From Antedon mediterranea (lineage: Eukaryota; Animalia; Echinodermata), in contig NC_092676.1 of assembly GCF_964355755.1 (NCBI RefSeq), positions 21,780,871 to 21,844,870 on the forward strand: a stretch of 64,000 bases of DNA, in the 5' to 3' direction. Below the pieces are notes generated by a model that worked only from the letters and a program-made list of their open reading frames with translations, ran no database searches and had not been told where the DNA came from. Position 1 is the stretch's first letter, and the number at the start of each line of letters is the position of its first letter. A program made the position numbers and the translations under genes. Positions 16,066-44,659 of this stretch are shown in pieces.

Positions 16066-17521
16066 TCTATATATAAATTTACGTAAGGGCAAAATTCGAT
16101 AAATCGCAGTTTATTTCTAGAATTTTTACTCGATGGTATATAAAGTTGGTTCGTACTTTCGGTACTGATTTTAACCATCTGATGTAACCATGTTTACTAA
16201 TTAAATTGAGTTAGATAATTAGTTATTGACAATTAAAACGAATTTAGGTTCAACGATTTGCCCCAAATAGGGTGTTTCGTGGTCGTGGTATACACTGTCT
16301 AATGGATGTCTAACTTGAAAAATACCCGCAGACAATAATGCAAGGATGCTTCGCATTTTCCTATCTCCTCCTACGATAATTGTTTTTAATAGCTGAAAAC
16401 CGGTTGAACAGCTCGAGTACAGCATCATAATGTTGAAGACAGGCCGATTTTCTTTAAAAAATACTATTTTGATAGATTTAATATACGTTTATACAAATGT
16501 TTTGATCTGCGATAAATGGAACATTCCAATCTCTGTTCCACAAGTGTCTATTCCCTCAGGCGTCGTAAAGACAAGTACTGTACAGTCATAACAGAAATTC
16601 GATACATTTTTTTCCAATCTGTGGAATCCTTTTTTTTTAACGCATAATGAGCTAGCCTTTCCAGTCGCCGTCTATTATGTACAATCAACTTTATTATTGC
16701 AGCTAAACCACCACCAACATCACCACCCTCCCCTCACTGGCATGAGTAGCGTTGTAAAGTCAGTAGAGGACAGGCCTACAGTACGAATGATCAGTACATG
16801 CCCTAAACGCAGAACAACTTTGGTGGTTAGGAAACAACTTAATTTTCAATACAAGTTGGGTAGCATAATTGGCTCTATGAAACACTTGACCATTAGGCCT
16901 ACTAATTAAGTTGAGTTAGATAATTATTTATTGACGATTAAAGCGAATTTACGATTTGCCGCGATTAGAGGTGTTTAATATATTACTGACAGTTCCTTCT
17001 GAACGTTTGTAATCATGTAACTTCAAAAAAATATAAACGTCGTATTAGAGTGATGTATCGTTACATGTACTGTACTATTTCAATCGACTATGACGGTGAC
17101 AGTTTCAACAAAGTATTAAATCGCAATGTTTTACTGTGTTTACTGGTATATTATTTGTAAAACATGAAAACAATTCATATTTCGTTACTAAATCGATAAA
17201 GAATATATTTAAAAATTGTTCGTCTTTGCATCCATCCTCTTCCCCATCCCTCAACCCAAATGTTACATACAAAACACAAATTCAGTTTGTTTCTTATTTT
17301 GTGACAAACTTCTTTTTCGGAAGTAATTCCCGGGGTGCTAATTTTAGTTGAGTACATAAATCACCGTGTCTATTTATTCGTTCCTGTAAACAACATGTAT
17401 TATTGTCCTGCATGTGCATTTGAAGTCGCCAGTTTTTTAAACGCTGAAATTACTATGTATTCGAGAACCATCTGTGGGCACGACCTAGATGGTACGCGAG
17501 CGAAGCGAGCGTACCATCTAG
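16066..17521 (+). mobile_element. Non-autonomous Helitron-like element, family 1 copy 1
   Basis: A|TCTATATATAAATT 5' end; 3' hairpin ending CTAG|T; no TSD; 5' and 3' arms highly similar to 26306-27298. Confidence 0.8.
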
Positions 17522-18854
17522 TCTATATATAAATTATGGTTAATTCTGACATAGGCGAGCACAATGCAAAAACTTCTCTACAAATCTCCGCCTTGGATAC
17601 CTACCTTATCTATCCGAGATGTACCGCGAAACGTAGATTTGATAACATTAGTGTGCACGCCGACGCTATTGTTCCATATTTATATCTTAGGAAGATATTA
17701 TAAAGAGTTTTTTAACAACATTTATGATTTCAACATTGGATTTTCCTCTCAATTTCAATTCTTCCCGGTCAAAGTAATTTCCGGGTTTAAGATAAGTTCA
17801 CCTTAGTTTCAAATATTTTCTCTCTTTTATACACAAGGGAGCAGTTAAAATAATAGATTTGACCCTAAAGGTGACTGGAAACAGGCACTTTCCATCAATC
17901 AATACAGTGTCCCTTTGGAAGACGAAAAAAAAATTGGCCATTAATCATAGCCATTTCAGTTTTTTGTTTATTTTAAAACATACCACACGTGTGTGAAGGT
18001 GCAGTAGTTAAATAATAGGAATTATACTGCAAATTAATAAAGATCAAATTAAATATACGCCATAAAGAATCAGAATATATTGTGGGGAATAGTATTATAA
18101 AATTACATAGGGAGATTTGATAAGACATTTTTCGAGTGAAATCCCGATAGCTGAGTTTTATTGAGTAAGCTTGCAGGAATAACTGTAGGCTATCTTCCTG
18201 TGTCCCGTTAGGACCGAGATGTCTGCCCATGTTGCAAGCCGTAATGTCTTCTTTCTTGGGCCCACTCTGTCACGGCAGTTAGTTTCAAAAGATGATTAAA
18301 TTAAATAATGTATTAATAATTATTAGGATGGTATTCATTTGAATAAACGCCTCTCCAATAAAACATCACTTTGAATAATAACCCCCCCCCCCCCCCCCCA
18401 CACACACAACCCAACTATCTAATAAACGTCCATTCACATATTTATAATAACACAATTATACTATTTGTAGTAGAATTCACCGCACTGTTATCTGCAATTT
18501 ACCAAGCATTTGTTATTCTTTTTTACCACTTTTCATATCTATGAGACGATTTCATTTGATTATAAATGTTACCATATTATTAGAACTAAAAAATTTAACA
18601 TATATCCCTCGAATAAGCACCTCCCTCAAATGACCTCCGCCTTTCCAAAGGGCCCTACCAAACAATAAAAACTATACTTTAAAATGTTATTAATCATCTA
18701 AAACACTGTGAAACAAAGTAGTTTAGTTTTACGAATGTCAAGCATTTTCAATAATGGTAACCGACAGAAAATGTATAAGGAGAACATTATGATTCCGAGA
18801 ACCATCGTCTACACTTCCTAGAGGGGGAGCGAGCGAAGCGAGCTCACCCTCTAG
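17522..18854 (+). mobile_element. Second Helitron-like element directly abutting the first (family 2)
   Basis: Begins TCTATATATAAATT immediately after the CTAG of the previous element; ends GAGAACCATC...CTAGAGGGGGAGCGAGCGAAGCGAGCTCACCCTCTAG|T. Confidence 0.65.
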
Positions 18855-23137: not shown

Positions 23138-26100
23138 ATGCATCTTAAGATTCTCATAATATTTACAGCGTTGATGTTTTCAAATGTTTCCATGATTGAA
23201 GAATCACGAGGTAAACTAGAGTAATTATTTTGTTGTTTTTGTAATTGAAGAACTTCGTATTTGTTCCATAATCTATACGACTTTTCCGTTCTTAAACATT
23301 TTGCAGCAGTCATGAGATGGATTCTAACTGACTATCCATAGTCAGTATAGAAACATGTCTAGGTGTATGGAATACTTTTAAAACATGTTACTATGATATT
23401 TGTTTGTTTAATCCTTTAAGTACGGTAATGTATGATTTTAACAGTATATTTCAACTTTATAGTGTATTATTTTATATCATTCTCCTGATGTAAAATGTAC
23501 CGTTTACTTAATGTTCTGTTTATTCACCATTCTTAAACAAAAAAACAAGAATAGACTATTTCTAATTCAGTCTTGCTATGTTGCTTTCTAAGATTTTTTA
23601 AACATTATTCATCTTTTTAACATTATGGTAATTCTAATCTATAGTTTCAAATGACTTCATCTCCATGTGCTACGTAACATCATGGGCACAATACCGAGCA
23701 GGAATCGGAGCTTTTACTATTGACAACATCGACCCAGAACTCTGTACTCATGTGATCTATGCCTTTGCAACTGTTGACGATAACTTGCACATAGCCGCAG
23801 CAGAGTGGAACGACATGTCCACAACATGGTCTGTGGGAAACTACGAGAAGCTTCAACAGCTGAAAGACATAAACCCACATCTGCGTACCATATTGAGTGT
23901 TGGGGGCTACGCTCTGGGGACAAAGAAGTTCACACAGCTGTCTTCAAATCAAGAACTACGCGCAGATTTCATCCAGCATTCTGTGACGTTTCTAAGAGAT
24001 AATAGATTTGATGGTCTCCAAGTTGATTGGACATATCCAACATTTGGAGACAGTCCTCCTGAAGATCGGCAGCGATATACTTTGTTATTGGAGGTATGTG
24101 AGGTTTTTATGTATTATCTCCAGTTTTGTTCCGTTGGTGTCTTTCCACTTTGAACATGACATTTAAACTGAAACTAAAACTCAAAATATCAAGAGAAACT
24201 ATACCGTACTTTACAATAGTAATACAATATGTTTTTGTATTTTGAAGAGGTAAGTTAATCTTTTGGATTAATTTATAACGTGTTGCAAATAATTATATTA
24301 TTTGTTTCTTCTCTTCCGCCACTTAACGTTTTAAAGTACTAAGCATACAAAAGATCTCCATTCACAAAAAAAAAAAAAATAACTCCAATTAATTGTTGTT
24401 TATTATATTATTATATTTGACAAAATTCAGGTCAACGAGCCTCGAAATATCTAATACTTACCAATTCATTTACCAATAATTTAAATTTTAAAAGGTTGAA
24501 ATTCTTTGCAGTGTAAATTCATGACTATAGTATACGAATCAATTACAGTTTTTCCTGTAATCAGTGGTAGTAAGATAAGTTGGTTAACTCTGGCATAACT
24601 GTATCGCTTATCCACCAGTAAATTGATATACATGTAAATCATGTAACGTCATGAATATAATAATTATTAATTACTGCTTTCCGGGAATGAAAAATAGGAA
24701 CACGGTTTATTCAACTCTGACGTAATCGTTCTATGCTTTATAATGTACTGAGTTTTTTGACCGTTTATGGTTTGTAGCCATCATTTACTGGTAGGCTTAC
24801 TAACGATGTATTAAAGAATATTACTATTTTATTATATCAAGCTTATTGACCGTTAAGAAGATTGAATTAGTAAGTTTGTATTGTTATCCATGTCAACAAG
24901 TTAAGTCATAGACCTTCTAGTCGGTACTTGATTAAAGTGTAAATAATTTTAAAAGGACAGTTTGTCCAATCACATTTCATTTTTTATATTGTATGATAAA
25001 GTATATATAATTATCATAAGTAGACATCACGATTGCCGCCACTAATAGAATAATGCAGATTGGTTTTAACACAAGCTAAAAAACTGTAATCTAGGCCCTA
25101 TGAAATTTATAAAATAACACAACATAGTTAATTTTGATTGATACGAAATTAGGGGAAAAAAGAAACATTACAATTATTTTTATTTGTAAAATGTGAAATT
25201 TCTCATTTTGTGATTGGTCATCGAATGCACGAAAAGATGATTTAACCAGTGATCCTTAAACAAAATGTGATAACAATAATGGAAAAGTGGGGCACTGTGA
25301 GGCAGTGGGGTACACCAAGAAACTGTATATTCCTCCTCACTCAGGGGGGACCGAGAAAAAGATGGGTACTTTGTTTAACAAGTACAGGGAAGGTAATTCA
25401 GAAAATACACTTTGGTTTCGAAATTTACTGAAAAAGTTCAGTTTAAGAAAATCGGATTATACATCATTTAACAATATTTACTACCGGTACTTTGCAGGAA
25501 CTGGAAATAGCGTTCCGCAAGGAGTCTGAGTTACCAGGAAGACGTCGCCTTCTTCTCATCGCTGCTGTAACCGGAGAAAAGTACTACACGAAGGCTTATG
25601 AAATCGATAAGGTTGCCAGGTAGTAAAAATACTCTTTAAAAAAAAATTCATTATTTTCAGGTTTATTATTACTTTGACTATCAAGTGGCTAATTGTGAAG
25701 CTTTAAAGTACGCGATCGTGTTGTTGAATATAGTTGAGTCACAATGTTTGTTTTGTAATGTTTTTCCCCTAAACGCAATGACATACACGCAACACAATTG
25801 ATTTTACCAATAACAACAGACCATCAAAACCTGTAAATTGGATTCGTTACACGTGCGTACGTACGTCCTTGTGCTAGCGTCGCAACGGCTACTAAAGCTT
25901 GGTTCCCACTAGAACGCAAGGACGTAAACGCAACGCAAGCGTTTTAACCAATGACAAGCAAAGTTATAGACAGTTAGCAATATCACAAGCGAATAAGCCA
26001 TCGCTTGTGATTGGTCAATTCACTTGCGTTGCGTTAAGTCCTTGCGTTGCGTTGCTAGTGGGAACCAAACATTAAAGACGTACTTAAGACGCGTCGAAGC

Positions 26101-29100
26101 TTAAAAAACCGACATTTATTTAAAAAGATATTAAATATTTGCAAAGGATTGATTATAATAACAAATCTAAACACATTTTGTTAATGCAGAAAAGGTTGCT
26201 GGATATTAAGTTGCGTGGTTATCTGTTTCCCATTTGAAATATATACGGTTTTTTAATAGTTAATGTGTTTCTTTTTTGTCATGGGAATTATTAGTGTAGG
26301 ATGAATCTATATATAAATTTACGTAAGGGCAAAATTCGGTAAATCGCGCGTTATTTCTAGAATGTTTACTCGATGGTATATAAAATTGGTTCGTACTTTC
26401 GGTACTGATTTTAACCACCTTATGTAACCCTGTTTACTAATTAAATTGAGTTCGATAGTTAGTTATTGACGATTAAAACGAATTTAGGTTCAACGATTTG
26501 CCCCAAATAGGGGTGTTTTCCGATCGTGGTATACACTGTCTAATGGATGTCAATTTGAAAAATACCCGCACACAATAATACGAGGACACTTCGCATTTTC
26601 CTATCTCCTCCTACGATAATTGTTTTTAATAGCTGAAAATCGGTTGAACAGTTCGAGTACATCATCATAATGTTGAAGACAGGCCGATTTTCTTTAAAAA
26701 AATGCTATTTTGATACATTTAATATACGTTTTTACAAATGTATTGATTTGTGATGAATGGAACATTCCAAATTATGTGGTTTAACCATAGAGGTATAGGC
26801 TTACCTCCATGGTTTAACACAAGTAGGTAGATTTATGGGCCCTTGGGGAACGTAAATGTTTCACTAGACTGTATGTAGTGGTATATTATGTATAGGCCTA
26901 TAAAACATAAAAAAATATATTTCGTTACTGAGTGGATAAGAATATATTTAAAAATGTTTCGTCTTTGTACCTGTCTTCTTCCCCATCCCTCAACTCTTAA
27001 TGTTACATACAAAACACAAATTGGGTTTGTTTAAATGAGTCCAAATAAAAAGAAATGACTCATTTTGTGATTTTGTGACAAGTTTCTCTCTCGGAAGTAA
27101 TTCCCAGGGTGCTAATTTTGGTTGACTACATAAATCATTGTGTATATTTATTCGTTTCTGTAAACGACAATGTATTATAGTCCTGCAGTACGTACATTTG
27201 AAATCTCCAGTTTTTTCTCGCTGGAATTACTGTGTATTCGAGAACCATCTGTGGGCACGACCTAGATGGTACGCGAGCGAAACGAGCGTACCATCTAGTA
27301 AATATAATTATTATTAATTATAATAACTTTATATATTAAAATCCAGTTAACATATCATCGCTTGGCTATTAGTAACGGTACGAATATTATTCATATGTTA
27401 ATAATTTATCACAGGAATTGTTTCAAGATGCTCGTTACAATTATTCATACAAATTAAATACATTCGAGTTGGGCTGATTGAATTTCGATGAATTAAATTC
27501 ACAGTTCATGCAATCCTAAATGTTAAATGTTTCTAATCAGCAAACTACAATTGCTACTATTGTTATTTTAAATATGGCTATTAATATTTATTATAACATA
27601 CCTGAATAGATTATTGTCATTTGATTGGAGGATTGTAAGTCACGTGATATTCAATAGACATACTATAGAATCTCGAAGTGCAATATTCTTGTCCTCAATT
27701 ATGGACAAAATGTTATACTAGGCGATTTGCGGTAAATATATAGCTCCTCCTATTAGTTTTGATATTTTTCAAAATAATACATTTTAACTAAATCACTAAA
27801 TACATATTTTCAAAACAAAAACCTTCAACAACAAAAATGCTTACAAGTAGTGAAATCGTTTCTCTCGCGATTTTTCGTATCACTATCATATCTTGCCTAG
27901 CTAGGCACAGCCCCACGTTATTATTATGATATGTGTTGTGTTATGTGTCGTTCGGTCGGTTGGTCGATAAATGCAGTCATGTATAATTATGGCCTAGTTA
28001 GTAGATAGCTTATAGGATATAAATTAATAGGCATTTTATCTATATTTACGATAGTGATAATACAATAATGACATTAAAAATGATGAAAATAATAAAATAA
28101 CCGTACTGTAGGTCAGTGCAGTAATTACCATATTTCAATCACTACTGCAGAAGAGTATTACTATTACACTTTCCATGTTAGTAAAATATTTATGTCGTCA
28201 TTAAAACTTTAATGCTTAAAAAATACGTCTATCTTGATTGCTTCAAAATTATTAAATGTAACACACGAGGAAAATAATTATAACTTAGCGAAATTACCGT
28301 TAGTTAATGACAGCATTATTAGACTGTAATTAGACAAAAAGGAAATTTGAAATCATCTTGGCCTAGTTCTGAATTTACGATCGAGAGTAATGGAATGGAA
28401 AATTAAATGCATTTTGTTAGTAGAAGATAAAATTGCAGCTTTTTGGATTAAGCATGGGATTATTTTCGAATTAGATATGCCAATTTTCATTTGTTTTAAT
28501 TGCAAAATTGTAGTCATTCATTATCATTGCGTCAGTTCCAACTCCACGTACAGAGCCTGCTTGCTTCTATCAGAAAGGCAAAGCAAGTATAGAGCGTCAA
28601 TTTGCAGTGACAAAATGACAGTTTAATTATCCGTTTAAATCCAAAGAATCCCAATCCAAAGAATCCCAATCCAATTATATTAGCCTAGTAGTATAAGATG
28701 AATAGCAAAGATGAATAGCAAAGTTGAATTTAAGATTATTTAAAATAAGTTTCTATGTTAAGTGTATTAATATGTAAAATTCAAATTTAATCATCTTCAA
28801 GCTAAAGTGGATCTGAGGCAATTCGAATCAGGCCATTTGTCGCTCAATGGAAGGCTTGGAAGCTATCGGTGCAAAGCCTACCAAGATCAGAACGTTGGGG
28901 ACATTATTTTTCCATATCCAGTTAAAGCAGATAGATACTACTTTTTATAATACCAAGTTATCTAACGTTAGTACAGTATACTGAATGTACACAACTTTGA
29001 GTCCTATCTGAATCAATTGGAAATGTAACCGTTTATTGGAGATTAATATAATATTTAAAATATAAATTAGCTTCTTTAAGCCTGTTTTCCTGAACCTAAT

Positions 29101-32100
29101 GTTTTCGTAAGGACAAATTCACGCTTCATGCTTTTTGCAAAATGTAGAAACTACATACCTCTGCATACACTGACGTCTGCGATTTTCGCGAATATATTCG
29201 CCTAGCGGAGAACATACTGTCAATGAAGATCCAACAATGTCAAAATATAATCCATGTTTAACGTTTAACTGGGAATTACTTAAATTATTCCAGTACGGTA
29301 AGTTAGGGTTTACTCCTATGATTGTATATAATTATGTATTGCATTATCGAACGATTGAATGATTGATTGATTGATTATAAATTGTATAATTTATATTTTA
29401 GAGCCGTTGATTACTTGACAGTTCGTGCGTATGATTTGAACAACCCGGATGAGCCGTACACCCAACATCATTCACCGCTTTACCCACCTCCTGGTGGTAG
29501 CAGTGAACAAGAATCAACGGTATGGACCGTTTGTATTTACATTCATTGTATCATAACACTTTAAGTAATACATAACATGTCCTTTATTTAAAATAATTGA
29601 TAGTAAAATTTGTTCTTGGTTCTTCTTTTAAAGAAGTCACCTATCGTTATCGTATATATTACAGTATAACCATATCTCTATACATTATCACTAATAATGA
29701 ATGTAATTAGTTATATTATTAGTATATTATACTTAAAATATCGACATTCATTTATTTTCAAAATAATTCGCTTTAATTTAATATTTTCAGGAGTCTGTTA
29801 TAGGATTTTGGATTAATGGAGGTGCTCTTTACTCCAAAGTCGTACTTGGTATTACTAGTTTTGCTCGAACATTCACGTTATCCGCCTATAATGAGTCATA
29901 TGTTGGTGCGCCAATAATTGGCAAGGGCACCGCAGGACCGATTGTAAATGAGCCGGGATTATTGTCGTACTATGAAGTAAGTATATTTCAAAAAAACTTT
30001 CTCTCATACTTGCTTTGCAATTTATTAGCCGGTAGGGGGCGGTCTATATCCGGTTGTGTTGCAGTACCCAAATAGAGAGAGAGTAGCTGCAAAACCCTCT
30101 CTTCTGCACAAGGTGTGCATCGTCTTGTGGCTATGTCATGCAGGAATGTGTTACGATTACATGTAAACACATTATGAAAATCATTACTTTATAACTAATT
30201 GTCAGTTAATTTTATGTTGTTTAAAATAAAATATCGGTAAATTTGTACTACCCTTTTCAGTCGAAATAGGAATATTGACTTTTAAAAGACTTTTAAAAGA
30301 CTTTTTCGACCAGCGTATTAGTCCAGACTACGGAAGTATAACATTAGATACTTCTATGTCCTGACGGTAGCTACTGAAAATCATCATTTAAAATCGTGGT
30401 TCAGCTAATGAAGGCATTCTATTATTAATTTATTATTCTATTATACACTATTTTAGATATGTCTGCTTAACGATAGTAACATATATTTTGATGACGAGCA
30501 GGAAGCTACTTATGCAGTTTCAGAAGATCAGTGGATGTCGTTTGATGACCCCAAGAGTATTCGAAATAAGGTATACTAAGACTTTACTTACTTGGTACAA
30601 TTTTAGAATCTGTAATCTGTACATCCTACATTATACTGACACTAAAGATACTGTATTATCAATGAAAACTAGGTCGAATGGGTAAAGAAGAACGGATTTG
30701 CTGGAATTGCTATTTGGTCCATGGCCTTGGATGATTTTAGTGGCAGTTCTTGCCAAGAGGGTAAATCACCTCTAATACGCACAGCAGTGGACACACTTTT
30801 AACAGGTATGGACTAGAGGCCTGGATGATATTTTGTTTTCTTGATAATATATTCATTAATTTAATCTATTTGTTTATTGGTATAAATCCAGTGTTTGATC
30901 GAGATACTCAACTTCACAATCCCAGATTGATTAAAGAATATTAAATTATATTCTGTTTGCATATTTCCAAAAGACTGCTTGTCTCATGATTTTATAAACA
31001 TTTCGATTTTGTATCAATCGTGAGCATATTGTGTATCAGTCTATTACTTTATTATTTTATTTTTGTAAATTATATATGTAATTTACAGGTTCCTTGATTC
31101 TCCGAGATGGCTATTCGAAACGTGAAGGAAATATTTTAATTCGGCAAAACAGAACAAAAGGTTACATTTGCGACAAAGAATGGACACAAAAAGATGCAGA
31201 TGTGGCCTGTCGACAGCTTGGTTATACAGGGTCCATGGCTGTGGAAAGCATTCCAAGTTTCAGTATGCCATTGGAATTTCGTCATCCAGTTCTTATGCAA
31301 GATATTGAATGTGACGGTACAGAAAAACGACTTGATGAATGCACATGGTCGCAACCAACAAATGACAGCTGTCAGCCTGTATCTGTTCACTGCAATGGTA
31401 AGGAGAAAACCTTTGATAACTAAACAAGTTACTAATAACTATCCTCTTATCCCAATAATCTCTCGCAACTGTTAAAAAAGACACCCAATAAGGTAGATGG
31501 GTTCAATCAGTTCTTCAAGCTGAAATTCATACAATTCAGCTACAGAATTGACTTGCAGATAACCTATTTGATCTATGGGATTGTTAGAGAAGATCTTGGA
31601 AAACAAATTGTCAAAACTGATTGCTAGTCCAATAGCAACGTCCCACTAATAGGTCATCATTATTTGACATTATTAAATGCATAAGACTATTTCCTACGGT
31701 TTTGTGAATTTATTTTTTGTTGGTGATATGCATCTCATCTGAGACAGGAATGATTATGCTGTATGTAAAAATAGGTAGTTCTGATTTATATAAAGCAGTT
31801 GCTATGTATTGTATTTAAGAATTTTGTTTTCTCTTTATTGTGCCTTTTTGTTTAATTTTATTTGTCAATTAGACGAAAGAAATAATTTTTTTCTCTCACT
31901 TTATCTGCGTCCTCCTCACACAATTATATTTATTGATTTATGTTCTGTATTATATTGTATTGTGTGAAACAATAAACTTGAAACTTTGAAACTTGAAACT
32001 ATTATTGTAGGAGATGTTAGACTCCAAGAAGAAGATAGCGATTATCCAAGTTTAGAAATATACTTGAATAATGATTGGCTGACCGTCTGCTCATCTCAAT

Positions 32101-35100
32101 GGACTAGTGTTAACGCAGACGTTGTTTGCAAGATGCTTGGATACTTAGGCTCTGTTCCAGACGACTGCTGCTCGTCGAAACCGGCAACTGACAATACACA
32201 CTATGTGACTGATGTTATATGTGATGGCAGTGAGGACCATATAAAGAGATGTTCATACTTCATATCTGACTCTTGTGTTAGCAATGAGGTGGTCGGACTT
32301 AATTGTATCAAAAGTAGGCGATATTATACTTAAACAAAAGCATAGGAATAGTTTGTTATATTATATAAATGAAAAAGTATTAACTGTGATTATTTCGCAT
32401 ATTTTATAATGTGGAAATATAACTAGCGACTGGCTTAGTAGTTAATCTAGTGATTAATAGCCATATTATTGGCAAAACAAGTTTACTCTGATAAGGACTA
32501 CAAACCGTAGGTCCAGTGTACACAAAATGGTCTCACTTTTAAGAACCTAGTAAACTGAGTAGGGTTTTGCTGCCTGGTGTTCCAGTAAACACACTGTCTT
32601 AAGTAGGCATATTATTCCGTGATTATCAGTATGTTGATCGTGGAACTATATAATTTCTCTTACATATGCAGATAGATGTGGTGATCGATGGATATATATC
32701 GGAGGAAGGTGTGTTTTTATTTCGTCCCGCTTAGATGGCCTAATTCCATTAAACTGGACACAATCTAGAGATTATTGTAATGGCATTGATGCCGAATTGA
32801 TAACGATAAAAGATGATTCTGAGTTGGAGGAACTTAACAATCAATTTGTTTACGTTTGGATTGGACTTAATGATGACGTAAGTTTATCTTTACCCATGAT
32901 GCAAGTTCATCAAATGTTTTAGCTCATTTCTAGGTTGTCTGTAACTGTACCTTATATAAATTTTCAAGTTTATATTAAATGTATGTTTCTGAAATGAAGG
33001 ACTTCTGCCGTTTAGCCTAAATTAGGTATATATGTGTAGTATCGTTGTGCTATGATTCAGATGTAGGTATACTTACCCATGCGATTTCATCAAAGAATGG
33101 TCGGATTGGATTCAGGTGTTTTCAAACGTTTGAATTGCGCATGTGTTGGCTTTTAAGTAAGGTTTATAACCAGCAATCGGTAATGAAAAAAAGTTTCAAC
33201 TCATGACTTGTCTGCTCAATCGACTAAAACATGCATATAATATGTTTAAGGTTGAAGAAGGTGTTTATAAATGGGAAGATGGAAGTTCCAAATCTTACAG
33301 TAACTGGCTTCAAGGAGAACCAAACAATTTAGGTATGTTTTCTGTTATTGATTGATCAAGTGGCCGAGCGGTTAAGTAAGGTTTTGTATGATGTGTCATT
33401 CATACGTGTACACAATCAGCCCAGTCTTAGGAAATATTGATAAGATTGTATCTGTAAACTTTTTTCCTAAAAGTTAAGTTATTGTTATATTTGGCTTAAG
33501 AATTTTATTGTTTAAACAGGATGTAACCGAAATTGTTTGGACGCAAATTGCGTTGTCGTGGAAAGAACTAAAGGATACTGGGTAGATGAAAAATGTTCAA
33601 GAAAGCATCTTTTTCTATGTGAACGTATGGGTGAGTTTTATAACGTATAGAAATGTTATTTGCAGGCCGATCTTGCGCTTTGGAACGAAATGTAGATGAA
33701 GCAGACGGAGATTGTATGCGAAATATTTATCGGCGCATGCGTACACTACAAGTTCATTATACACCGTTTTTGTTTTATTATCGGAACGGTATTTGGTCGA
33801 GATTTTGTTATATTTACACTACATTAAGTAGTAATTAGACGAATTTCTGCACTGCCAAATAGGTACTTTTTAGTCCACAATGATTTATATTTATAATGCT
33901 CTATCCAAACTTTATAGAGAATGTTGAGTCAAGATTATATTAAGTATAAACAAACGTTTTGTGTTAATTTTACCAGGGTAAGAAACCTTTAGTCTGAATT
34001 AATTTTAAAGTATGCCTTTATTGGTATTATGCTAATGAACCACATATATTATGCACATGCTGAAATTGCAACTGACTATGATACATAACATAGGCATCAT
34101 GGATAGAATACAAATTTGCATTTCATAGATATTATTTTTATTTATTATTGTGATAGAGTTACAAATCAACAAATCTAAAAATGTTCCTCCTGCTCCTCCG
34201 TGTCCACCTATGTGGAGAAAATACAACGGTTCCTGCTTTTTGCTGTCAAGAACACAATTATCATGGCAAGGGGCAAGACAGTATTGCAACAAGCGAAATG
34301 CATCTTTAGCCACTATCGGTAATTCTGATGAACAAGATTGGCTGGCAGAAATATTGAAGTTAAAGGAAAATGACAACTACTGGACAGCAATTAATGATAT
34401 TGTAAGTATGTATTTTTTGAATTAGTTTCCTCTCCTTTGAACCACTAAATGAAATATAAATATTACAACCAACTGGACATCCAGTTCAGACGTAAGTTTT
34501 GACTTTCGGATAATTTTATTTATTGCATTATTTAGTTACGTATTTACGTTACATTTTAAAGGAAGAAGAAGGGGTATATAGAGGGACAGATGGTATTTCT
34601 GCTGAATACCTAAAGTGGGACATTGATCAACCGAATAATAAGGGTAAATACAATATCGTAATTCGTACCATAGATCAGTGAAAGCAATTGATGGTGCTTT
34701 TTTCAGAATTGTTTATGTACAGTGTTCTGCATTCTAAAAAATGATTATTATTTTGTGCGTAGTGATTTCAAAATCTCTAATTATTCTGAATAGTTCAACA
34801 CAAACTATATTTATGATTTTAGGAGATTGTATAACATTTACACCCATGGTAGGAGGAGTAATGCACGACAGAGATTGTGCTAAAATTCAACCATGGCTCT
34901 GTGAACAGTCAGGTATAATATTTATTATATTATGTTGCTATATAAGCGTGTATATAGAATAGATATAGCTTTTTTTCATTATTATGTTAAGAAGGGAAGA
35001 GTTAAGAACAACTTCATTCCCAGGAAGATGATGTTATTTTTGTGCTTGTGTTTCGGTGAAAACATTTGAAATGTGTCTTTAGACCAATATTGACAATCAA

Positions 35101-38100
35101 TAAGTATATAAATTAATTACATTTCAGTGTTGTATACGCGTATAAACGATGATGCAACATATATATCAACATCGAAGAACACTGCTGTGATAGTTGCTTC
35201 TACTTGTTCTGCTGTACTAGTATTAGTAGTGATTTTCGCTGTCTTAATTGTCCTGCGACGACGACGCAGGCGATCAGTGTTAAAGTCACTACCTTACAAA
35301 AGTAATGTTCGTCCAGCGTCACGTAAGTTTTTTTTTTTGCAAATCACATGAGAAAAAATGATGTGATGACATCAAAGACGACAGTGATATAAATAAAGAT
35401 AAGGACAGTGATGACATGACGAGAAGACAATAGACGGCTGTCAGTGATAACAACAAAATGTACAGTGATGCTAACAAGGACAACAATTGTGACAATAAAG
35501 ATGACGATAAAGAAAAAAATGATAACAGAGCCAAAAATGATAAAATTAAGTGACGACCGTGATGACACAAAGAAGATAGTGTTTTCAAAGACGTGAACGA
35601 GGCAACAAACGACTGACAGTTATGAAAACAAAGACATCCAAGAAAATATGTTGATGTTTTATATAATGCTGATGGTAACTGAATACATTTTTTTGTTAAA
35701 TACAGACGACTATTTACCTCAACCAATTGTGGAACCAGCTGAAGAATTTAAGAATATGGAAATTCCACGAAATAGAATTACAACAAAGGACAGAATCGGA
35801 GGTGGTCAATTTGGCAAAGTTTTGCTGGGACATGTTGCTGGTATAGACGGCAGTGGCGAGACTATTAAAGTAGCAATTAAATGTTTACGAGGTAACTATG
35901 TCATATTGTCATTAAGTCATTTTATTTAAATACTATTAACGCGTACGCTAATTTTTTTGTAAACATGGCAAGAAGAGTGTCTAGAGCGAAATGCCACAAT
36001 GGTAAAAATGTTTTTTTATTGTTCACACAAAATAAAAATGCATACCAATCCATTGAAAAGTTTACAAAAGTATAATGTGAGAAAATAGAAGCAGAATCTT
36101 ATGCACTGTTGCACCATTGACATTTAAAAAAGTCGAAGACTTGTAGGCTATTAAGTAATAATACTTTTAGTGCTATTAGTGATATTCCACGAAACATTTT
36201 TTTGGAAATTTCTGAAATTCTTCATTCCAGTTTTTTCCAGTAATCTAACGTCTATACCGTCCCCGTCACCAGTATAAGACCGTACTTTCAGTGTTTAATA
36301 ATATGTATTACTAATAATACCATTTGTGTTGTAGATCACACATCGAATAAAGAGGACTTTTTGGACGAAATTAGGTTGTTAATCGAACTAGGAAAGCATA
36401 AAAACATCATATCTTTGGTGGGATGTGTTACAATAAGTCAGCCAAACATGGCACTGTTTGAGTTCATGCAGTATGGAGACCTACTACAATTTCTGCGCAA
36501 AGCTCGTCAGGTTAGAAAGCACGAAGTGTTCGATGTAGGCATATGGTCAAGGATTAACGATATTAAATCAACTACTGTCCTATCAGTTAGATGGTAATTC
36601 CTCTTACACAAGAGCTATTTTGTGAACCAGTAACACCAGTTAGTTTAGTTGTTACCGGTAGGTTTTAAAATGTATATTGAGTAAAACGGCTATTATTGTT
36701 CTACAGGTCAAAGAGGGCGGTGAAGCCGATGACCCCATATATGCTGTTTCACTTCTCGACCAATTGAACATTGCAAGACAGATAGCAAATGGAATGGTAA
36801 GTTAATTTGACGAAAAATGATATTTTCTCTAGCTAGCACTCTATTTTCTCTATCGAAATTGTCTGCTAACATACAAGCTTTCTTCATTTATTACTCCTGC
36901 AGGATTTTGTATCTTCCCTGAAATATTACCATGGTGATTTGGCAGCGAGGAATGTTCTCGTTGGTGAAAACTTGAACGTAAAGATTTGTGATTTTGGCTT
37001 AGCCGCTGATATATACCAAAAAGGATACGATCGTATGGCACCAGAGCAAAAACGACCGTTCAAGTGGTCTAGCCTAGAGACTTTGATAGAGGGTATATGC
37101 ACCATTAAAAGTGACGTGTAAGGATGTATTCTTTTTTGTTTGGTAATACTTTAGTTGGATAATGATTTGATAGAACTATCAACTTGGTTCTGTTTTTCTA
37201 ATAGATGTATCATTTATAACTACAATAATTTGGCTATCATTTTGTTCTATATCAGGTGGTCATATGGGGTTGTTCTTTACGAAGTGTTTACACTTGGAGC
37301 TGTTCCTTACCCTCACATTAATGCGAATACACTTCTTGAGCAATTAAAGGCGGGAACTCGACTCGCACAACCTAAGGATTGTCCGGATGATGTGTAAGTT
37401 AATCTTTCATTTTGTTAAATTAAAGACGATTAGGAAGTGAACTAAATGGCATTCTTTGCTGTATACTTTTACGAAAGCCGTTTAAGATTGTGCAAATATT
37501 TATATTATATGTTCTTTCCCAGGTTGAACCATTATTATATATAAATATTATTATTATAAAATAAGGTATAAACGGAAGAATTTTACCCCCTAAAGAAAAA
37601 CGATAAGAAATGCATTTTGAACGTTGGCCTGTTGCGTTAGAGCTGCTTAACATCCCATTAAACTTTTATCGTAGTTAATTGTTTATAAATGAAATATTAG
37701 TACAGTATCTTATTTCTGTAGTATTACTTTTAATATGTGTGAAATATTTTTTCAAGTCAACTACTTTCTAAGTTGAAATTAAATTTAACTTGAAACAATT
37801 GTCTCAATAAAGTTTTTTTTTTCAATAATGTTCCTCGTTAACAATAAGTAGCCAATTATTTGAATACAAACAATATAGAAATAAAAAATTACATATATCA
37901 GCATACAGTATTACAATGGAAATCATGTGGTAATTTAAATAATGGTGTACAAACATGAGTTTAATTAAAAGTTAAGATATACAGCCACTTTTTTGCCTAT
38001 CCCCTTTTGTACAGCTCAGACATTGATTATCAAATATATAGGCCTATGTGTTACATTTTCTTAAATTCAATTCAGATACTCATTGATGTCGCTATGCTGG

Positions 38101-38328
38101 CTGGAGAATTCCACTAAACGACCATACTTTGATGAAATTTCAAACAATTTAAGCCATCTACTAGAAACACATCATCAACCTGAAGGATATTTAGACTTCA
38201 ATGCAACTGAATGTGAACTAAACAATGAACATAATTCAAGCATATCGATGACGTCATTTTCAGACAAGACGAACACATCTATACGTTATGTTAATGATAA
38301 AATTAAAGCAAAATTTGTAAAGAATTAA
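23138..38328 (+). CDS. Gene A: receptor tyrosine kinase with ectodomain GH18 chitinase-like (inactive)-SRCR-SRCR-CTLD-CTLD, a TM helix and a non-RD Tyr kinase (~1291 aa)
   Basis: 22 exons: 23138-23210, 23645-24093, 25498-25619, 29402-29519, 29791-29976, 30457-30570, 30673-30805, 31089-31397, 32011-32313, 32672-32877, 33251-33332, 33520-33630, 34157-34401, 34562-34643, 34823-34912, 35128-35322, 35706-35891, 36335-36510, 36707-36796, 36903-37117, 37256-37393, 38076-38328. All are GT-AG and the phases chain without a stop (3876 nt). Signal peptide MHLKILIIFTALMFSNVSM. Confidence 0.9.
23645..30805 (+). CDS. Gene A GH18 chitinase-like domain exons (6 exons)
   Basis: CYVTSWAQYR, DPELCTHVIYAFA, EWND, LSVGGY, FDGLQVDWTYP, VDYLTVRAYD, PGLLSYYEIC, DQWMSFDD, GFAGIAIWSMALDDFSG: the complete set of animal chitinase motifs. 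Confidence 0.95.
25896..26072. mobile_element. ~180-bp Harbinger-like MITE in a gene A intron
   Basis: TAA|AGCTTGGTTCCCACTAG ... CTAGTGGGAACCAA..|TAA; a same-family copy lies at 46605-46783 and a decayed one near 52130-52280. Confidence 0.75.
26306..27298 (+). mobile_element. Non-autonomous Helitron-like element, family 1 copy 2, in a gene A intron
   Basis: A|TCTATATATAAATTTACGTAAGGGC ... CTAGATGGTACGCGAGCGAAACGAGCGTACCATCTAG|T; inserted in an AT dinucleotide with no TSD. Confidence 0.82.
31089..32313 (+). CDS. Gene A two SRCR domains (one exon each)
   Basis: 31089-31397: GYICDKEWTQKDADVACRQLGY..IECDGTEKRLDEC..VHC (6 Cys, group A pattern). 32011-32313: WLTVCSSQWTSVNADVVCKMLGY..VICDGSEDHIKRC..GLNC. 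Confidence 0.92.
32672..34912 (+). CDS. Gene A two C-type lectin domains (3 exons each)
   Basis: CTLD1: CGDRW..GRCVF..WTQSRDYC..WIGLNDD..YKWEDG..NWLQGEPNN..NCVV..WVDEKC..FLCE. CTLD2: CPPMW..GSCF..WQGARQYC..YWTAINDI..WDIDQPNN..DC..MHDRDC..WLCE. Confidence 0.92.
35128..38328 (+). CDS. Gene A transmembrane exon and tyrosine kinase domain exons
   Basis: TM AVIVASTCSAVLVLVVIFAVLIVL followed by RRRRRR; kinase motifs IGGGQFGKV, VAIK, DEIRLL, HKNIISLVG, YGDLLQFLR, HGDLAARNVL, KICDFGLA, KSDVWSYGVVLYEVFTLG, CW..RP.F. Confidence 0.95.
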
Positions 38329-39736
38329 ATTTAATGGCGTACATTATATTATAATAAGTCTTTTAAATCATACTTTGGAAAAAGCAGTTAAATGAAATGT
38401 GTCAATTTTTGTCTATAGAAATGTATATCTTGTTTTAACTATGTATTGAAAGAAATTTATTCTTTCATCTCAATACATACTTAGCTTAATTTTGCGTGAG
38501 AAGTAGAAGACACCGTTCTACACCAACACAATTTAGTTTGCAAACTCAACATTTGCCAGTGTAGAACAGTTGTATCACACAATGAAATTGGCGATTACCT
38601 GCGAAGCCATGGAATCATTAACGTAAAATAGAGTAAACAAAAATGTTCTAAGTGCAATAAGAAATTTAAATTTAAATTTAATTTTATCTTATTTAATATT
38701 AGTAATTATATAACAATATTTAGAAATAACATTTAGATACACTAGCTCTAGTATATCTATTTACAATTGTATATTTACCTATTTTAAAAATTTTTAATTA
38801 TATGATCAATTTTCATAAGTATTTACTGTAAATAATGTCGGTTTGACTAATTGCTATGTATATTTTTAATTTGCATAATACAATATTATATCAAATAAAC
38901 AACGTGTTATTGTATAATGAAATTTGTGAGGGATATAATATAAAATAAATAAACAAAACGCCCAGTGATTGAAATTCTTGGCAAAATGAGCAATACATTT
39001 TTCACCTCGTACTAAAGATAAGAAGTCGAGATTTTATTATTATTATTATTATTTACAATTCCTGAAATCCAATAGGCTCTCTAAGTATAACGGCAAAAAA
39101 AAAAATAAAACTAGGATGATAAAAAAAATATGAAAACGCTTTTGTGCAAACAAAGCAAGTACGATACTTAAATTGTATTTTACCAAGTAGTAATAATATA
39201 TGTTGATATAAAGTAATAATATAATGAATGATTACAATGCGTTTCCGAATTCCAATGACCTACTTCAATAGATTATAAAACAATCATGTGAATTTAAGCC
39301 CTTGTATTAACCTTAGAAAATCTTTAATACAATAACACATCTATGATTATAATATTTACGAAGGTGACTACCATCCGGCATTTAGTATTCTACAATTTGT
39401 TTAACGGTCTACTGTACGTGTTGAGGGCTCGAAGATAGTTTATGTTGAAGGATTTTAGTATGCGTGGCATTGTGATTATGGTAATAGTTTCACTAGTGTT
39501 TGAGAATGTGGTAACTTCAGAAGAAAAAAGAAGTAAGTAAAAATTTGGTAATTAATCCGAATAAAAATTTTACAAAATAATAGTAGACTACTCATCTCAA
39601 TAAATACTATAACCACGATTGTGTATTTTTTAGTAAAAGTAGGAACAAATATACTTTCGGAAGGTTTACGTAAAAAGTGTCACGTCACGACTAAATTACT
39701 AAAAGAGCATTTTAATGAATTGTTTTCCATTTTCAG

Positions 39737-42400
39737 TTTATAACGACCATGTATCCATGTGTTACGTAATATCATGGGCACAGTATAGAGCTGGAATCGG
39801 AGCTTTTACTGTGGATAACATCGATCCAACGCTTTGCACACACGTGATCTACGCCTTTGCAACTATTGACGATGACATGCACTTAGCAGCCTTGGAATGG
39901 AACGACTTGTCCAAAACATGGTTAGTCGGAAACTATGAGAGACTACATCAGCTTAAAAACATAAATCCGGATCTACAAATAATACTTAGTGTCGGTGGAT
40001 TTTCATTCGGAACTGAACCATTTACAATGATGACGTCTAATGTAGAGGTGCGAGCTGAGTTTATCCGACATGCAGTGACTTTTCTGAGGGCCAACACATT
40101 TGATGGATTACAGATTGATTGGCAGTATCCTACTTTTGGTACTAGTCCACCGGAAGATCGCCAAAGATACACATTTCTGCTTCAGGCATGTTAGAGTCAC
40201 ATCTCATCTATGACTCTAAACACAGAGTTTCACATTTTTACTCTAGTTGTGTATCACATTCTTAAAGAGTATTAACAAAGTATAATCTGATTCAAAACAT
40301 AATTACCGTACTTCCACAATCCAACCTACACCAACGTTGGTGCAAATTGGTTTTTAGGATATTGTAGGTTGGTTTTGTGGATGTTGCTTATAGGCCTATT
40401 GTTAATTTTCTGTTGTAATTGTTTCTCTTCTTGTTCTTTTTTTGTATATGATTTTTATATGGTTGTACTATCCGAAATAAAGAAATGAATGAATAGATTA
40501 TACAAAAAATACCAATGCTTTTCATATCACTGGGTTCTCATGTCAACTATATCAGATCTATCCGTCGGACACCGAAAATGGTCATACTGTATGTCACTTC
40601 CTATCCCGTCAAAAAAGTAAACAGTTTTCATTGTGTTTGTCTAGTTTGTAAAGTGTTTTTATTTGTAATTTCAGGAACTTAAAGAAGCATTTCGTGAAGA
40701 GTCTGAACAACTAGAAAGAAAGCAGCTTATTCTTATTGCGGCAGTTGCTGGAGACAAGTACTATGAAAAGGCATATGAGATTGATAAAGTTTCAAGGTAA
40801 ACAGAGTAGAGCTTTAAATCGCATTTTCCATAACTTCTTATAAGGAGTTGCTGAACAATTTACTGTGTGGTCTTGTGTCTAAATCATTGCTACTGTTCAA
40901 GATATGAATAATTATAAAATCTTATGCTAATATTTTGCAATACATGTAAATCAATTATAAATCAAGTAATGTTATGCGGGATACCTTTGGTAATCATAGA
41001 AAAACTCATTTTGCATAGGATTTTCAATCAATAGCTTAGTCGATGGTGACATCTTACTATCAAAATAAAATTATTGATAATTCGTATTTCCAGGGCTGTA
41101 GACTATTTAACCGTACGTGCGTTTTACCTATATGATCCAGACGAACGAATAACTATACTTCACACACCACTTTATTCTAATCCGGGAGATTTGGACCACC
41201 ATGAATCTACGGTATTTATTTTATTCGTTCGTTCGTTTGTTCAATCTAATATTTCAGAATATCTGGTCTGTGGAAAATAACTTAATTACGTGTAAATTAG
41301 AAAATAAACTTTACTGACTGATTATGATGATGAATATAATAGGTAAAAATGTTGTACCAATATATATACCTTAAGAATAAAATCATTTGCTTAAGCTATT
41401 TTATTCTTTATAATTATTATTTAAAGGAATCCGTAGTTGGATTGTGGACGAATGGAGGAGCAAGTTACTCTAAAATTGTTGTTAGTGTATCAACATTTGC
41501 CGTAACGTTTACTCTATTGGACTCAACCGAATCCTACATCGGTGCGCCAACAATTGGTGATGGCAAACCTGGACCATACGTCAACCAACCTGGGTTATTG
41601 GCGTATTATGAGGTATTTTGGACATTGATTGTAAAAATGTGTTTATTTTTTAAAGCCATTGTTCACGCTTTCATAATATATCATGAAATGTACCTCTGTT
41701 TAGACCTCTGCAAACTTTAAACGTATTATAATGTTTACAACTGCTCACACTATGCAAAAAGGAAAAGGAAGAAGAAAAAGAAGTCATGGTTGTTTACGTT
41801 TGAAATATCTACAATAAATAACAATCAGCTCAGCAGTCATCAACGTCAGACATGATACCAGAAGAGGAAGAAGAAGGCCTAGTAAAAACATAAATGTCTA
41901 TAAGATGTTGTAAAGATATTCTAACATAGACTTCACCTCTTTATCTCTAGGCATGTCCATTTGTCAACAACTACGACATTTATTTTGATGAAGAACAGGT
42001 TGCATTTTATGCAGTTTTGGAAGATCAATGGATATCATTTGATCACTTTAGAAGTATCGAATTAAAGGTAAAAATTGTTCAAAATGAATTACAACATTGT
42101 TTATGTTCACTTGATTATTGTGGTACCGTGCGGTATTATCTTATAGGGAAAGTAGTACAGTAATACATATCACTGTAGTTGACAACTTTCAACCGGGCAC
42201 TAATAATAAATAAAACACGTTCTCGGATGCCTTAAACATGTACTCATTATTATTGCTCTTTTTTAAGATGGATTGGGTGAAACAAAATGGATTTGCTGGT
42301 GTTGCTATCTGGTCGATGCCTATGGATGATTTTAATGGCACGGCTTGTCTTGAAGGAAGAAATCCTCTGCTGAATGCTATAGTTGATAACTTGAGGACAG
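39737..42400 (+). CDS. Gene B GH18 chitinase-like domain exons
   Basis: CYVISWAQYR, DPTLCTHVIYAFA, LSVGGF, FDGLQIDWQYP, VDYLTVRAFY, PGLLAYYE, GFAGVAIWSMPMDDFNG. Confidence 0.92.
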
Positions 42401-42479
42401 GTAAGACTTTCAACTTTGTTCACCACTGTGTCATCTTAACTATCTAAAGAAAACAACGTTTTAGGGCTCCTTTAAGCTG

Positions 42480-43993
42480 TCAACTGTCTATTCTTGAACC
42501 AACCACAGATGAGGAGATCGAGAAATTGATCAAGGCATCCCCGATAAAGTCTTGTGAGCTAGATTCTATTCCAACTTGGCTTTTAAGGGATTGCGCTCCT
42601 GTAATAGTTCCAGTGCTAATGAAATTAGTTAATCTTTCACTTATCACATCCACAGTACCACAGAATTTAAAGAAAGCACATGTACGGCCTTTGCTGAAGA
42701 AGACTGGCCTCAACCCAGAAGTTCTTAAAAATTATAGACCGGTTTCAAATTTATCCTTTGTTTCGAAGCTTATTGAGCGTGTTGTTGCAGTTAGACTCTC
42801 TAAGCATATGTCAAATCACAACCTCCATGAAACTTACCAATCAGCATACAAAGCTAACCACAGTGTTGAGACAGCGCCTCTACGTGTTCAGAATGACGTT
42901 TTGACATCAATAGATAATCAAGAACTTGTTATTCTAGTTTTACTAGACTTATCGGCTGTTTTTGACACAGTAGATCACTCACTGCTTCTTCATAGATTGT
43001 CACATGATATTGGGGTAAGAGATCAAGCATTGTCTTGGTTCACATCATATCTAAGGAACAGAACCCAGGCCGTCTGCATTGGTGATGTTTCATCAGATGA
43101 CCTTCCTCTATTATGTGGCGTCCCACAAGGTTCGGTGCTTGGACCACAGCTGTTTTCCATCTATGTTGCACCAGTTGCTGAAATAATACGAAGACACGGA
43201 TTATGTCATCATTTCTATGCAGATGATATACAAATCTACGTTTCTGTCAAGCCTTGCCAGACCAAGTTTCTGTCCGCCGTAAAACGGTTAGAAACATGCA
43301 CTGCTGAGATTAGAAAATGGATGGGCTCCAACTTCCTCAAGCTAAATGATAAAAAGACCGAGGTGATCCTATTTGGTTCTGTTCAGCAGAGAAAAAAGAT
43401 CCGGTTTGATGGCCTACATATTGGTGGCGTACTAGTCAATCCATCATCAGAAGTTCGTAACCTTGGTGTACAACTTGATTGTAAAATGACCATGGAATCA
43501 CATATCAACAAAATCTGCCGATCTGCTATTTTCCATTTATGTAACATCGCCAAGATCAGACGTTACATGAACTTGCTTGGTGATGTGTGCCAAGAAGTAT
43601 GATCACGTCACACCATTGTTCAAAGAGTTAAATTGGCTACCCATGGAGTCACGTATTCAATTTAAGATCCTGCTGCTGGTGTTCCGATGCCTAAATAGTT
43701 GCGCTCCAAAATATCTCTCAGAATTGTTGACAGTCAAGAAGGGAAAGCTAAGATCTAGTCATCAGGTGCTACTGGACATTTCAAGGAGCAAACATAGTTG
43801 GGGAGATCGGACTTTCAGTGTTGCTGGACCTAGGCTCTGGAACCACCTACCCTTGAACATTAAACACACATCATTATTGAGTCACTTTAAGTCACTACTC
43901 AAAACTCACCTTTTCTGATTTTTTTTTACAGCGCCATGAGCAATGAATGTTGGAATGGCGCTATATAAATTGAACGATTGATTGATTGATTGT
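42480..43993 (+). mobile_element. 5'-truncated L2/CR1-group LINE (reverse transcriptase fragment) in a gene B intron
   Basis: ORF 42526-43602 with NYRPVSNL, QSAYK..HSVET, LLDLSAVFDTVDH, GVPQGSVLGP, FYADDIQIY, LKLNDKKTE; frameshifted C-terminal part 43577-43918 (HVTPLFKELNWLP..FSVAGPRLWNHLP); 3' end GCGCTATATAAAT plus a (GATT)n tail. Confidence 0.93.
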
Positions 43994-44659
43994 GTAATTT
44001 CTTTTTTTTTTTGTAACAAGCGGATCTTGACAATTTACATCAAATCACAGGTTACATTTTTATTGAATATCATTGCAAGAGTAGAGAAGCCAGCTGAGGT
44101 GGGGAAGTAGGAGGCCATGCCCACTTCCCTTTACCCACATCGTCGAAGAATGTGACCTCTTCATCAAGGAAGACTTGACACTTGTGTTCATTGTTTATTC
44201 GACACAATCTTCAAGCCACTTTTGCTCCTTTTTTAACCGTAGGGCAAAACTCGCAAATTGAGTAACATTGGCTAATTCAACACATAAATGAATTCCCGTG
44301 TCTTACATAAAAGATAGCTAACATTTTTTTAAATTATTTTTGATAATCAGATTCTGAATAATAAATGTTCTGTATTTTAGGTTCATTGGCATTAGTAAAC
44401 GGTTTTTCTAGCCGAGAAGGACTTCTTACAATGTGGCAAAATGGAACATGGAGATATATCTGTGATGATCACTGGACTCAAGACGATGCAAATATTGCAT
44501 GTAGGCAACTTGGATATCAAGGATCAATTCCTCTTAATGAAGTCCCAATCTTTGAACGGTTAGAAGGCCTGTATTACCCTGTAATTGTTGGTAAAATAAA
44601 CTGCGAACCCAGTGGGCAAAAATTGGTTGAATTAACGTTAATTCAACGTTATCTGCAAA

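Follow-up and report, generated by a model that had tools for sequence, protein, structure and literature searches.

Can one animal protein begin outside the cell as a chitinase-like domain and end inside it as a tyrosine kinase, and if so, what would it sense? The question is raised by a 64,000-nt stretch of DNA from the feather star Antedon mediterranea (assembly GCF_964355755.1, contig NC_092676.1, positions 21,780,871 to 21,844,870, forward strand), hereafter the window, whose own coordinates are used throughout. Within it, an original prediction made from the sequence alone placed a receptor tyrosine kinase (RTK) at 23138-38328, which we call gene A. We find that gene A represents a real, conserved and apparently undescribed RTK architecture, and that it is very probably one chain made from one transcript. 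To the reading in which this chain is a glycan-sensing RTK, for chitin-type immune or surface-surveillance sensing, we give a rough probability of 45%. Direct cell-surface chitin sensing in animals is still debated, and gene A is a concrete candidate for it.

Spliced model and domain layout of gene A

Splicing in silico joins 22 exons of the + strand (23138-38328) into 3876 nt, encoding 1291 amino acids (aa) and one terminal stop, with GT-AG borders at all 21 introns. This bears out the frame of 22 exons and about 1291 aa that had been predicted to run from the GH18 domain to the kinase with no stop between them. The phase-1 donor predicted after the last GH18 exon is also present, and the three junctions that had been singled out (30805>31089, 32313>32672 and 34912>35128) are exact and in phase 1. 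Pfam was run exon by exon on 21 of the 22 exons (exon 1 was left out). Taken singly, exons 2, 4 and 6 matched GH18 (best E 2e-31), exons 8 and 9 matched SRCR (E 1e-19 and E 1e-16), exons 10, 12 and 13 matched Lectin_C, and exons 17, 18, 20, 21 and 22 matched PK_Tyr_Ser-Thr; exons 3, 5, 7, 11, 14, 15 and 19 gave no Pfam match. Together with hydropathy, and with Pfam on the RefSeq protein described below, these matches give the order signal peptide, GH18, two SRCR domains, two C-type lectin domains, one transmembrane (TM) stretch and tyrosine kinase, which from GH18 onward is the order originally proposed. The TM stretch is single (19-aa hydropathy windows starting at 891-903), and the spliced model has the signal peptide, ectodomain and one TM helix expected of an RTK. 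The features of gene A are:

23138-23210, +: exon 1, with the start codon, a predicted signal peptide spanning aa 1-24 (peak hydrophobicity 2.99 in a 9-aa window) and a phase-1 donor; exon 1 of paralog B (see below) is also 73 nt
23645-30805, +: exons 2-7, encoding the whole GH18 chitinase-like domain, from aa 25 to 398 (Pfam PF00704; alignments to solved chitinases)
23645-24093, 25498-25619, 29402-29519, 29791-29976, 30457-30570 and 30673-30805, +: the individual GH18 exons
31089-31397, +: exon 8, SRCR domain 1, 6 Cys, phase 1-1 (PF00530, E 1e-19)
32011-32313, +: exon 9, SRCR domain 2, phase 1-1 (PF00530, E 1e-16)
32672-33630 (32672-32877, 33251-33332, 33520-33630), +: exons 10-12, C-type lectin domain 1, with EPN at aa 694-696 and WVD at 719-721 (PF00059)
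34157-34912 (34157-34401, 34562-34643, 34823-34912), +: exons 13-15, C-type lectin domain 2, with QPN (PF00059)
35128-35322, +: exon 16, stalk, single transmembrane helix and basic stop-transfer run (hydropathy, translation)
35706-38328, +: exons 17-22, juxtamembrane part, tyrosine kinase and tail (PF07714, E 8e-81 on the identical RefSeq protein)
35706-35891, 36335-36510, 36707-36796, 36903-37117, 37256-37393 and 38076-38328, +: the individual exons of the kinase part

The domain-boundary introns are all in phase 1, which makes 1-1 modules of the GH18 domain (exons 2-7), of either SRCR exon and of either lectin block. Such 1-1 phase modules are the usual signature of exon shuffling. In alignment with a second crinoid, Anneissia japonica, lectin domain 1 keeps both EPN, which we take to be a mannose/N-acetylglucosamine (GlcNAc)-type motif, and WVD, a variant of WND; lectin domain 2 has QPN in Antedon and QPD in Anneissia.

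The catalytic-loop exon is 100% identical to RefSeq protein XP_071956948.1 of A. mediterranea, whose 557 aa equal residues 735-1291 of our model letter for letter. This identity confirms exons 13-22 independently of our own splicing.

Intron 3 of gene A carries very high-copy repeats at 25684-27375 (depth >100,000 compared with ~55), with similar sequence at ~16060-17540, and a palindromic element at ~25895-26065 in the same intron recurs near 46600-46785.

The GH18 domain has lost its catalytic glutamate

The GH18 domain is full length, as judged by Pfam and by alignments to solved chitinases, and it is closest to animal chitinases, the Anneissia protein matching chitotriosidase at E 9e-91. 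Its catalytic motif reads D147-G-L-Q150-V-D152-W-T154, in which chitotriosidase D136 has become Q and E140 has become T. The catalytic glutamate is lost in all three copies compared (T in gene A, Q in Anneissia, Q in paralog B), and D136 is Q in each of them; the chitinase motif DxxDxDxE is replaced by DxxQxDxT in gene A and by DxxQxDxQ in paralog B and Anneissia. An active GH18 chitinase was rejected on these grounds, in spite of the full-length homology.

The dead domain is the best-conserved part of the ectodomain: between gene A and Anneissia it is 76% identical, whereas the SRCR and lectin exons reach 40-63%; the exons of the kinase N-lobe reach 69-75%. Between the GH18 domains of gene A and paralog B, the proportion of nonsynonymous differences (pN) is 0.19 at a saturated synonymous proportion (pS) of 0.77 (Nei-Gojobori). 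All three copies retain the groove aromatics that correspond to chitotriosidase W31, Y34, W71 and W358, and W99 is Y/Y/F; presumably these positions stack against sugars. The GH18 domain of gene A thereby combines a lost catalytic residue with a kept aromatic groove, as a chi-lectin does. GH18 is present in both paralogs and the lectin domains only in gene A, which marks GH18 as the core sensor. As judged from its residues, the domain would be a conserved binding module, for which chitin is the likeliest, but not an assured, ligand.

The kinase and its HGD-loop relatives

The kinase of gene A has the motifs GGGQFG at 971, VAIK at 995, HGDLAARN at 1100 and DFG at 1120, activation-loop tyrosines Y1128 and Y1132, and the helix-C glutamate. 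It scores 271.7 bits with PF07714 compared with 113.9 bits with PF00069, and among the solved matches listed, all 60 are RTKs. Its catalytic loop is non-RD, reading HGD at 1100-1102, with no Arg before the catalytic Asp. Between gene A and paralog B, the kinase has a ratio of nonsynonymous to synonymous substitution rates (dN/dS) of 0.16 (Nei-Gojobori), indicating purifying selection.

A kinase-domain scan of 1.84 billion representatives supplied the best 150 relatives, of which none carried GH18 (local phmmer) and only paralog B carried an SRCR piece. Pfam was applied to 49 HGD-loop relatives, short fragments left out and the best five families per protein taken, and recognized FN3, Ig, LRR, sushi, EGF, CUB, F5/8 or VWC ectodomains, or none. 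The HGD-loop relatives looked up by name (n = 10) were all echinoderm, hemichordate or amphioxus records. Identity between the gene A kinase and single-kinase members of the HGD clade near the top of the best-150 listing was 45-53%. A quick IQ-TREE, with support from the Shimodaira-Hasegawa-like approximate likelihood ratio test (SH-aLRT) only, was built from 89 kinase domains of 179 stored proteins, leaving out multi-kinase proteins, short matches and 12 near-duplicates. The gene A kinase falls in a 60-row clade (SH-aLRT 98) apart from 29 HRD rows; HGD is found in 58 of the 60 rows, and two have no readable motif. Four crinoid rows group together at SH-aLRT 100. Gene A therefore looks like a crinoid ectodomain swap within a family that swaps its ectodomains freely.

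The database names XP_071956948.1 an FGFR. We rejected this identity, as there is no Ig match, the loop is HGD rather than HRD, and the kinase lies outside the 29-row HRD clade (in a tree holding no named FGFR reference). A search with the TM/N-lobe region returned only P0001 and one coral FGFR-like protein (2 of 490 candidates). In the ESM Atlas, P0001 as a whole gave no usable match, and its residues 1-575 gave only GH18 clusters, with scores <0.9 and no kinase family shown; small clusters lie outside that search, so absence is not shown by it. An HGD loop is also present in STYK1/NOK.

As an observation in its own right, a large clade of HGD-loop RTKs exists in echinoderms, hemichordates and amphioxus, with LRR, sushi, F5/8, tectonin, Ig, EGF or FN3 ectodomains, and is mostly mislabelled as FGFR-like.

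A second crinoid species and a tandem paralog

The same order of domains recurs in Anneissia japonica XP_033124328.1 (LOC117122741, ‘uncharacterized protein’, 1047 aa), where one model runs GH18-SRCR-SRCR-lectin-lectin-TM-kinase N-lobe. It is colinear with exons 2-18 of gene A across each domain junction, at 32-83% identity per exon, shares the same dead GH18 state, and in the kinase tree falls with gene A and paralog B (SH-aLRT 100), making it a probable ortholog. Unlike gene A, the model has no signal-peptide exon and ends after the kinase N-lobe. Over its C-lobe, gene A shares 85% identity with another Anneissia record, XP_033116345.1, a partial one of 118 aa on a contig of 1224 bp; this record may be the C-lobe that XP_033124328.1 lacks.

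A tandem paralog, B, lies downstream in the window (39460-55332, +) with the layout signal-GH18-SRCR-TM-kinase. Its first eight exons measure 73/449/122/118/186/117/133/309 nt, compared with 73/449/122/118/186/114/133/309 nt in gene A, and it keeps the phase-1 GH18>SRCR join. The second SRCR exon and the lectin exons were not found in it by tblastn. Its features are:

39460-42400, +: exons 1-7, coding for a signal peptide and a GH18 domain with the motif DGLQIDWQ; the donor of exon 2 is GC (40185)
42448-43918, +: reverse-transcriptase fragment of the long interspersed element (LINE) type, in two frames, within intron 7 (PF00078, E 4e-32)
44381-51152, +: SRCR exon, split into 227 + 82 = 309 nt, as in exon 8 of gene A (PF00530 on the 5′ piece)
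44608-51068: 6461-bp element splitting the SRCR exon, with 11-bp inverted ends (CCC...GGG) and a 2-bp AA duplication
51439-55332, +: stalk/TM exon and kinase exons, HGDLAARN, with the donor at 52618 lost (RefSeq XP_071956949.1)

The 6461-bp element contains long subterminal tandem arrays (112 bp x 6 and 61 bp x 29), and presumably resembles a non-autonomous CMC/EnSpm or foldback element. RefSeq XP_071956949.1 models only the last 440 aa of paralog B, which may, from its disrupted exons, be a recent pseudogene. Its GH18 domain is 68% identical to that of Anneissia and 66% to that of gene A; being as far from one as from the other, paralog B was probably duplicated before the species split. Together, the colinearity in Anneissia and the exon lengths of paralog B indicate that the architecture of gene A is not due to chance. 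The HGD loop, paralog B and the public Anneissia record did not figure in the original prediction.

Proposed mechanism and alternative explanations

We propose that the receptor originated when phase-1 exon shuffling joined a GH18 block, SRCR exons and lectin blocks to an HGD-family kinase, an event that would predate the split of the two crinoid species and that of the two paralogs. The outermost, dead chitinase domain would bind chitin or a related GlcNAc-rich glycan without cutting it. One polymeric ligand would bridge several receptors and so cluster them, the EPN lectin domain would add avidity, and the SRCR pair may serve as a spacer or as a second sensor. Clustered kinases would then trans-phosphorylate on activation-loop and tail tyrosines. 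The most likely role would be as a sensor in innate immunity or surface surveillance. As suspension feeders, feather stars meet chitin-bearing prey and symbionts, so that both defence and food sensing are plausible. A narrower version, in which the crinoid receptor is dedicated to chitin, its dead GH18 domain reading fungal, parasite or prey chitin and signalling through the non-RD tyrosine kinase, is tentative and falls short of an even chance. The accessible text of PMC8463890 connects non-RD kinases with innate immunity, in plants as well as in animals, and through this connection the non-RD loop of gene A fits an immune role.

Several observations weigh against a single chain that senses chitin in immunity. 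The HGD loop is common to 58 of the 60 clade rows, whose ectodomains are FN3, Ig, LRR, sushi or EGF. A family-wide loop is an inherited one, and the non-RD loop is consequently weak evidence for an immune role; we rejected it as specific evidence of one. The positions of chitotriosidase Y212, D213 and R269 read Y/D/R in gene A, Y/S/Q in Anneissia and F/Y/V in paralog B, and the M210 position is Arg in all three copies. We take these positions to have polar or subsite roles in chitin contact, and with such variation from copy to copy, one cannot count on a conserved pocket for chito-oligomers. Strong conservation and two copies in the window would suit a housekeeping or developmental ligand equally well, and paralog B looks to be decaying (split SRCR exon, lost kinase donor). 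XP_071956948.1 models only aa 735-1291, beginning at Met735, so that the public annotation starts mid-gene, and a GH18-exon search among proteins of 262-2000 aa gave no Antedon protein (3 matches among 136 candidates). The public annotation therefore leaves the two halves unjoined here. The Anneissia model is itself a prediction, without exon 1 and ending after the kinase N-lobe. Finally, tobacco CHRK1, a plant receptor compared below, proved to act in development too (accessible text of PMC10573068 and PMC5485988).

These points bear first on the ligand. The dead GH18 domain of a single chain could bind a host glycan or protein (matrix, mucus or a secreted factor), or food chitin in the gut, and serve development, regeneration or feeding. 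The polar chitin contacts that vary within a strongly conserved domain, the shared Arg at the M210 position, the low copy number, and the part that CHRK1 plays in development and cytokinin balance, as far as the accessible sources describe it, all lend this explanation some weight. It is nonetheless unlikely, given that all three ectodomain types, GH18-like, SRCR and C-type lectin, are common recognition modules, that EPN is kept in both species and that the groove aromatics are kept.

A distinctly less probable explanation keeps the single glycan-binding chain and gives it a weak non-RD kinase, whose signalling would come mainly from scaffolding or from allosteric partnership with another kinase; the partner could be paralog B or a different HGD-family receptor. 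Non-RD kinases show low activity in vitro, and EFR signals without its own catalysis (accessible text of PMC8463890); OLD-1/FLOR-1 are a kinase-pseudokinase pair (accessible text of PMC10523662). However, the kinase of gene A has its G-loop, VAIK lysine, helix-C glutamate, catalytic D and N, DFG and two activation-loop tyrosines, and it is under purifying selection.

Would the long frame be used at all? Two products could be made instead, one of them secreted and consisting of GH18(-SRCR-SRCR-lectin), the other a receptor in its own right with the layout lectin-TM-kinase. The Met735 start of the RefSeq model agrees with such a division, and read-through at the exon-7 donor reaches a stop four codons on, which would allow an isoform with GH18 alone. 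AATAAA does not occur in intron 7 (283 bp). The RefSeq model lacks a signal peptide, yet contains a disulfide-bonded lectin domain; it opens at an internal Met where exon 12 ends, and its splice from exon 12 to exon 13 matches that of the long model. A signal-peptide-like mini-exon (36-150 nt, ATG-started, 9-residue hydropathy >=2.0, in the right phase) was found in none of the 21 introns of gene A, and a hidden second promoter exon with a signal peptide was rejected accordingly. The GH18>SRCR join recurs in both Anneissia and paralog B, and two separate products are quite improbable. The single chain of the original prediction is well supported by colinearity in a second crinoid, by paralog B and by the missing alternative signal exon; RefSeq covers its last 557 aa only.

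An assembly or prediction artefact is barely credible: no single contig of the DNA run covers the entire stretch, but run X2 (possibly the window's own source, and so not independent) covers all 30 of the 30 bins, at a depth of ~50-70 where they are single-copy, and the same domain order is repeated in Anneissia and in paralog B, on which ground an assembly chimera was rejected. A further sequencing run, X1, had been guessed to be RNA. This was rejected when pieces were found wholly inside introns (30039-30233, 31543-31725 and 36515-36705); X1 behaves as low-depth DNA and is uninformative on splicing.

Other features of the window

Upstream of gene A, exons at 568-5446 belong to a gene that looks like formin-binding protein 4; they include a proline-rich one and give a weak WW-domain match, whose E of 1e-4 falls below the Pfam cut-off. 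A 33-bp tandem array at 10437-11360 has 28 copies that are 98% alike and is open in three frames. Degenerate Thr/Ser-rich repeats with 15-bp and 170-bp periods occupy 13700-14920 and resemble a decayed mucin-like exon.

Novelty and comparison with known systems

The original prediction knew of no description of the architecture. This stands for the literature, in whose listings and abstract openings no animal GH18-RTK was found, a search outside which lie supplements and subscription papers such as sea-urchin and amphioxus kinome surveys; it does not stand for sequence records, as the domain order is already contained in the public Anneissia ‘uncharacterized protein’ entry. The sea-urchin and amphioxus surveys reportedly may name the HGD family. 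GH18-kinase models may exist in other animals, and supplement tables of kinome papers could list such an architecture. No GH18-RTK came up in the passages matched by term look-ups in papers on GH18 evolution (PMC1945033), chimerolectins (a review, PMC12355970), the holozoan tyrosine kinome (PMC8662651) and vertebrate RTKs (a survey, PMC4898815). The known range so far is two feather-star species.

If the narrower version, a receptor dedicated to chitin, is true, gene A would be the first case in animals of a receptor that unites chitin binding with kinase signalling in a single chain, and it would be convergent with CHRK1 and the plant chitin receptor kinases. It would also belong to an overlooked, ectodomain-swapping family of non-RD RTKs, possibly including pattern-recognition receptors across echinoderms, hemichordates and amphioxus. 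Gene A in any case points to a large, misnamed non-RD RTK family in invertebrate deuterostomes.

The closest systems each share one part of gene A. The HGD-loop RTKs of invertebrate deuterostomes (records named FGFR-like, ROR2-like, egl-15 and others) share its kinase, with which they nest; unlike gene A, they carry FN3, Ig, LRR, sushi, EGF, CUB, F5/8 or VWC ectodomains, and GH18 is absent from all 150 best relatives. Mammalian chi-lectins (YKL-40, Ym1) have a dead GH18 domain of the same animal chitinase group, whereas they are secreted, have no TM or kinase, and would have lost activity separately. Hydra Sweet Tooth, cited as a precedent in the original prediction, does have a C-type lectin-like RTK ectodomain (accessible text of PMC2680970); compared by ectodomain only, it differs in having four lectin domains and neither GH18 nor SRCR.

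In Caenorhabditis elegans, oomycetes are recognized through the RTKs OLD-1/FLOR-1, whose genes sit among chitinase-like ones (accessible text of PMC10523662). As that text describes them, these KIN-16 family receptors and the chil genes resemble gene A in bringing an RTK and chitinase-like proteins into one pathogen-recognition pathway and one cluster. Unlike gene A, they are separate genes, OLD-1 has an HRD loop, and chil genes are outputs of the pathway.

The comparison with tobacco CHRK1, also drawn in the original prediction, holds for the dead GH18 domain, TM and kinase, and the class of kinase differs. According to the accessible text of PMC10573068 and PMC5485988, CHRK1 has an extracellular GH18 domain without the catalytic glutamate, one TM and an intracellular kinase; it is pathogen-induced (PMC10573068), and 91 plant GH18-kinase sequences are reported (PMC5485988). 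CHRK1 thus resembles the receptor predicted from gene A in combining a dead GH18 domain, a TM and a kinase in one chain. It is, however, a plant IRAK-related receptor-like kinase, whereas gene A would encode an animal tyrosine kinase with SRCR and lectin domains and an animal-type GH18. By their sequences, the two are of independent origin and convergent: plants and animals reached the combination of dead chitinase, TM and kinase independently.

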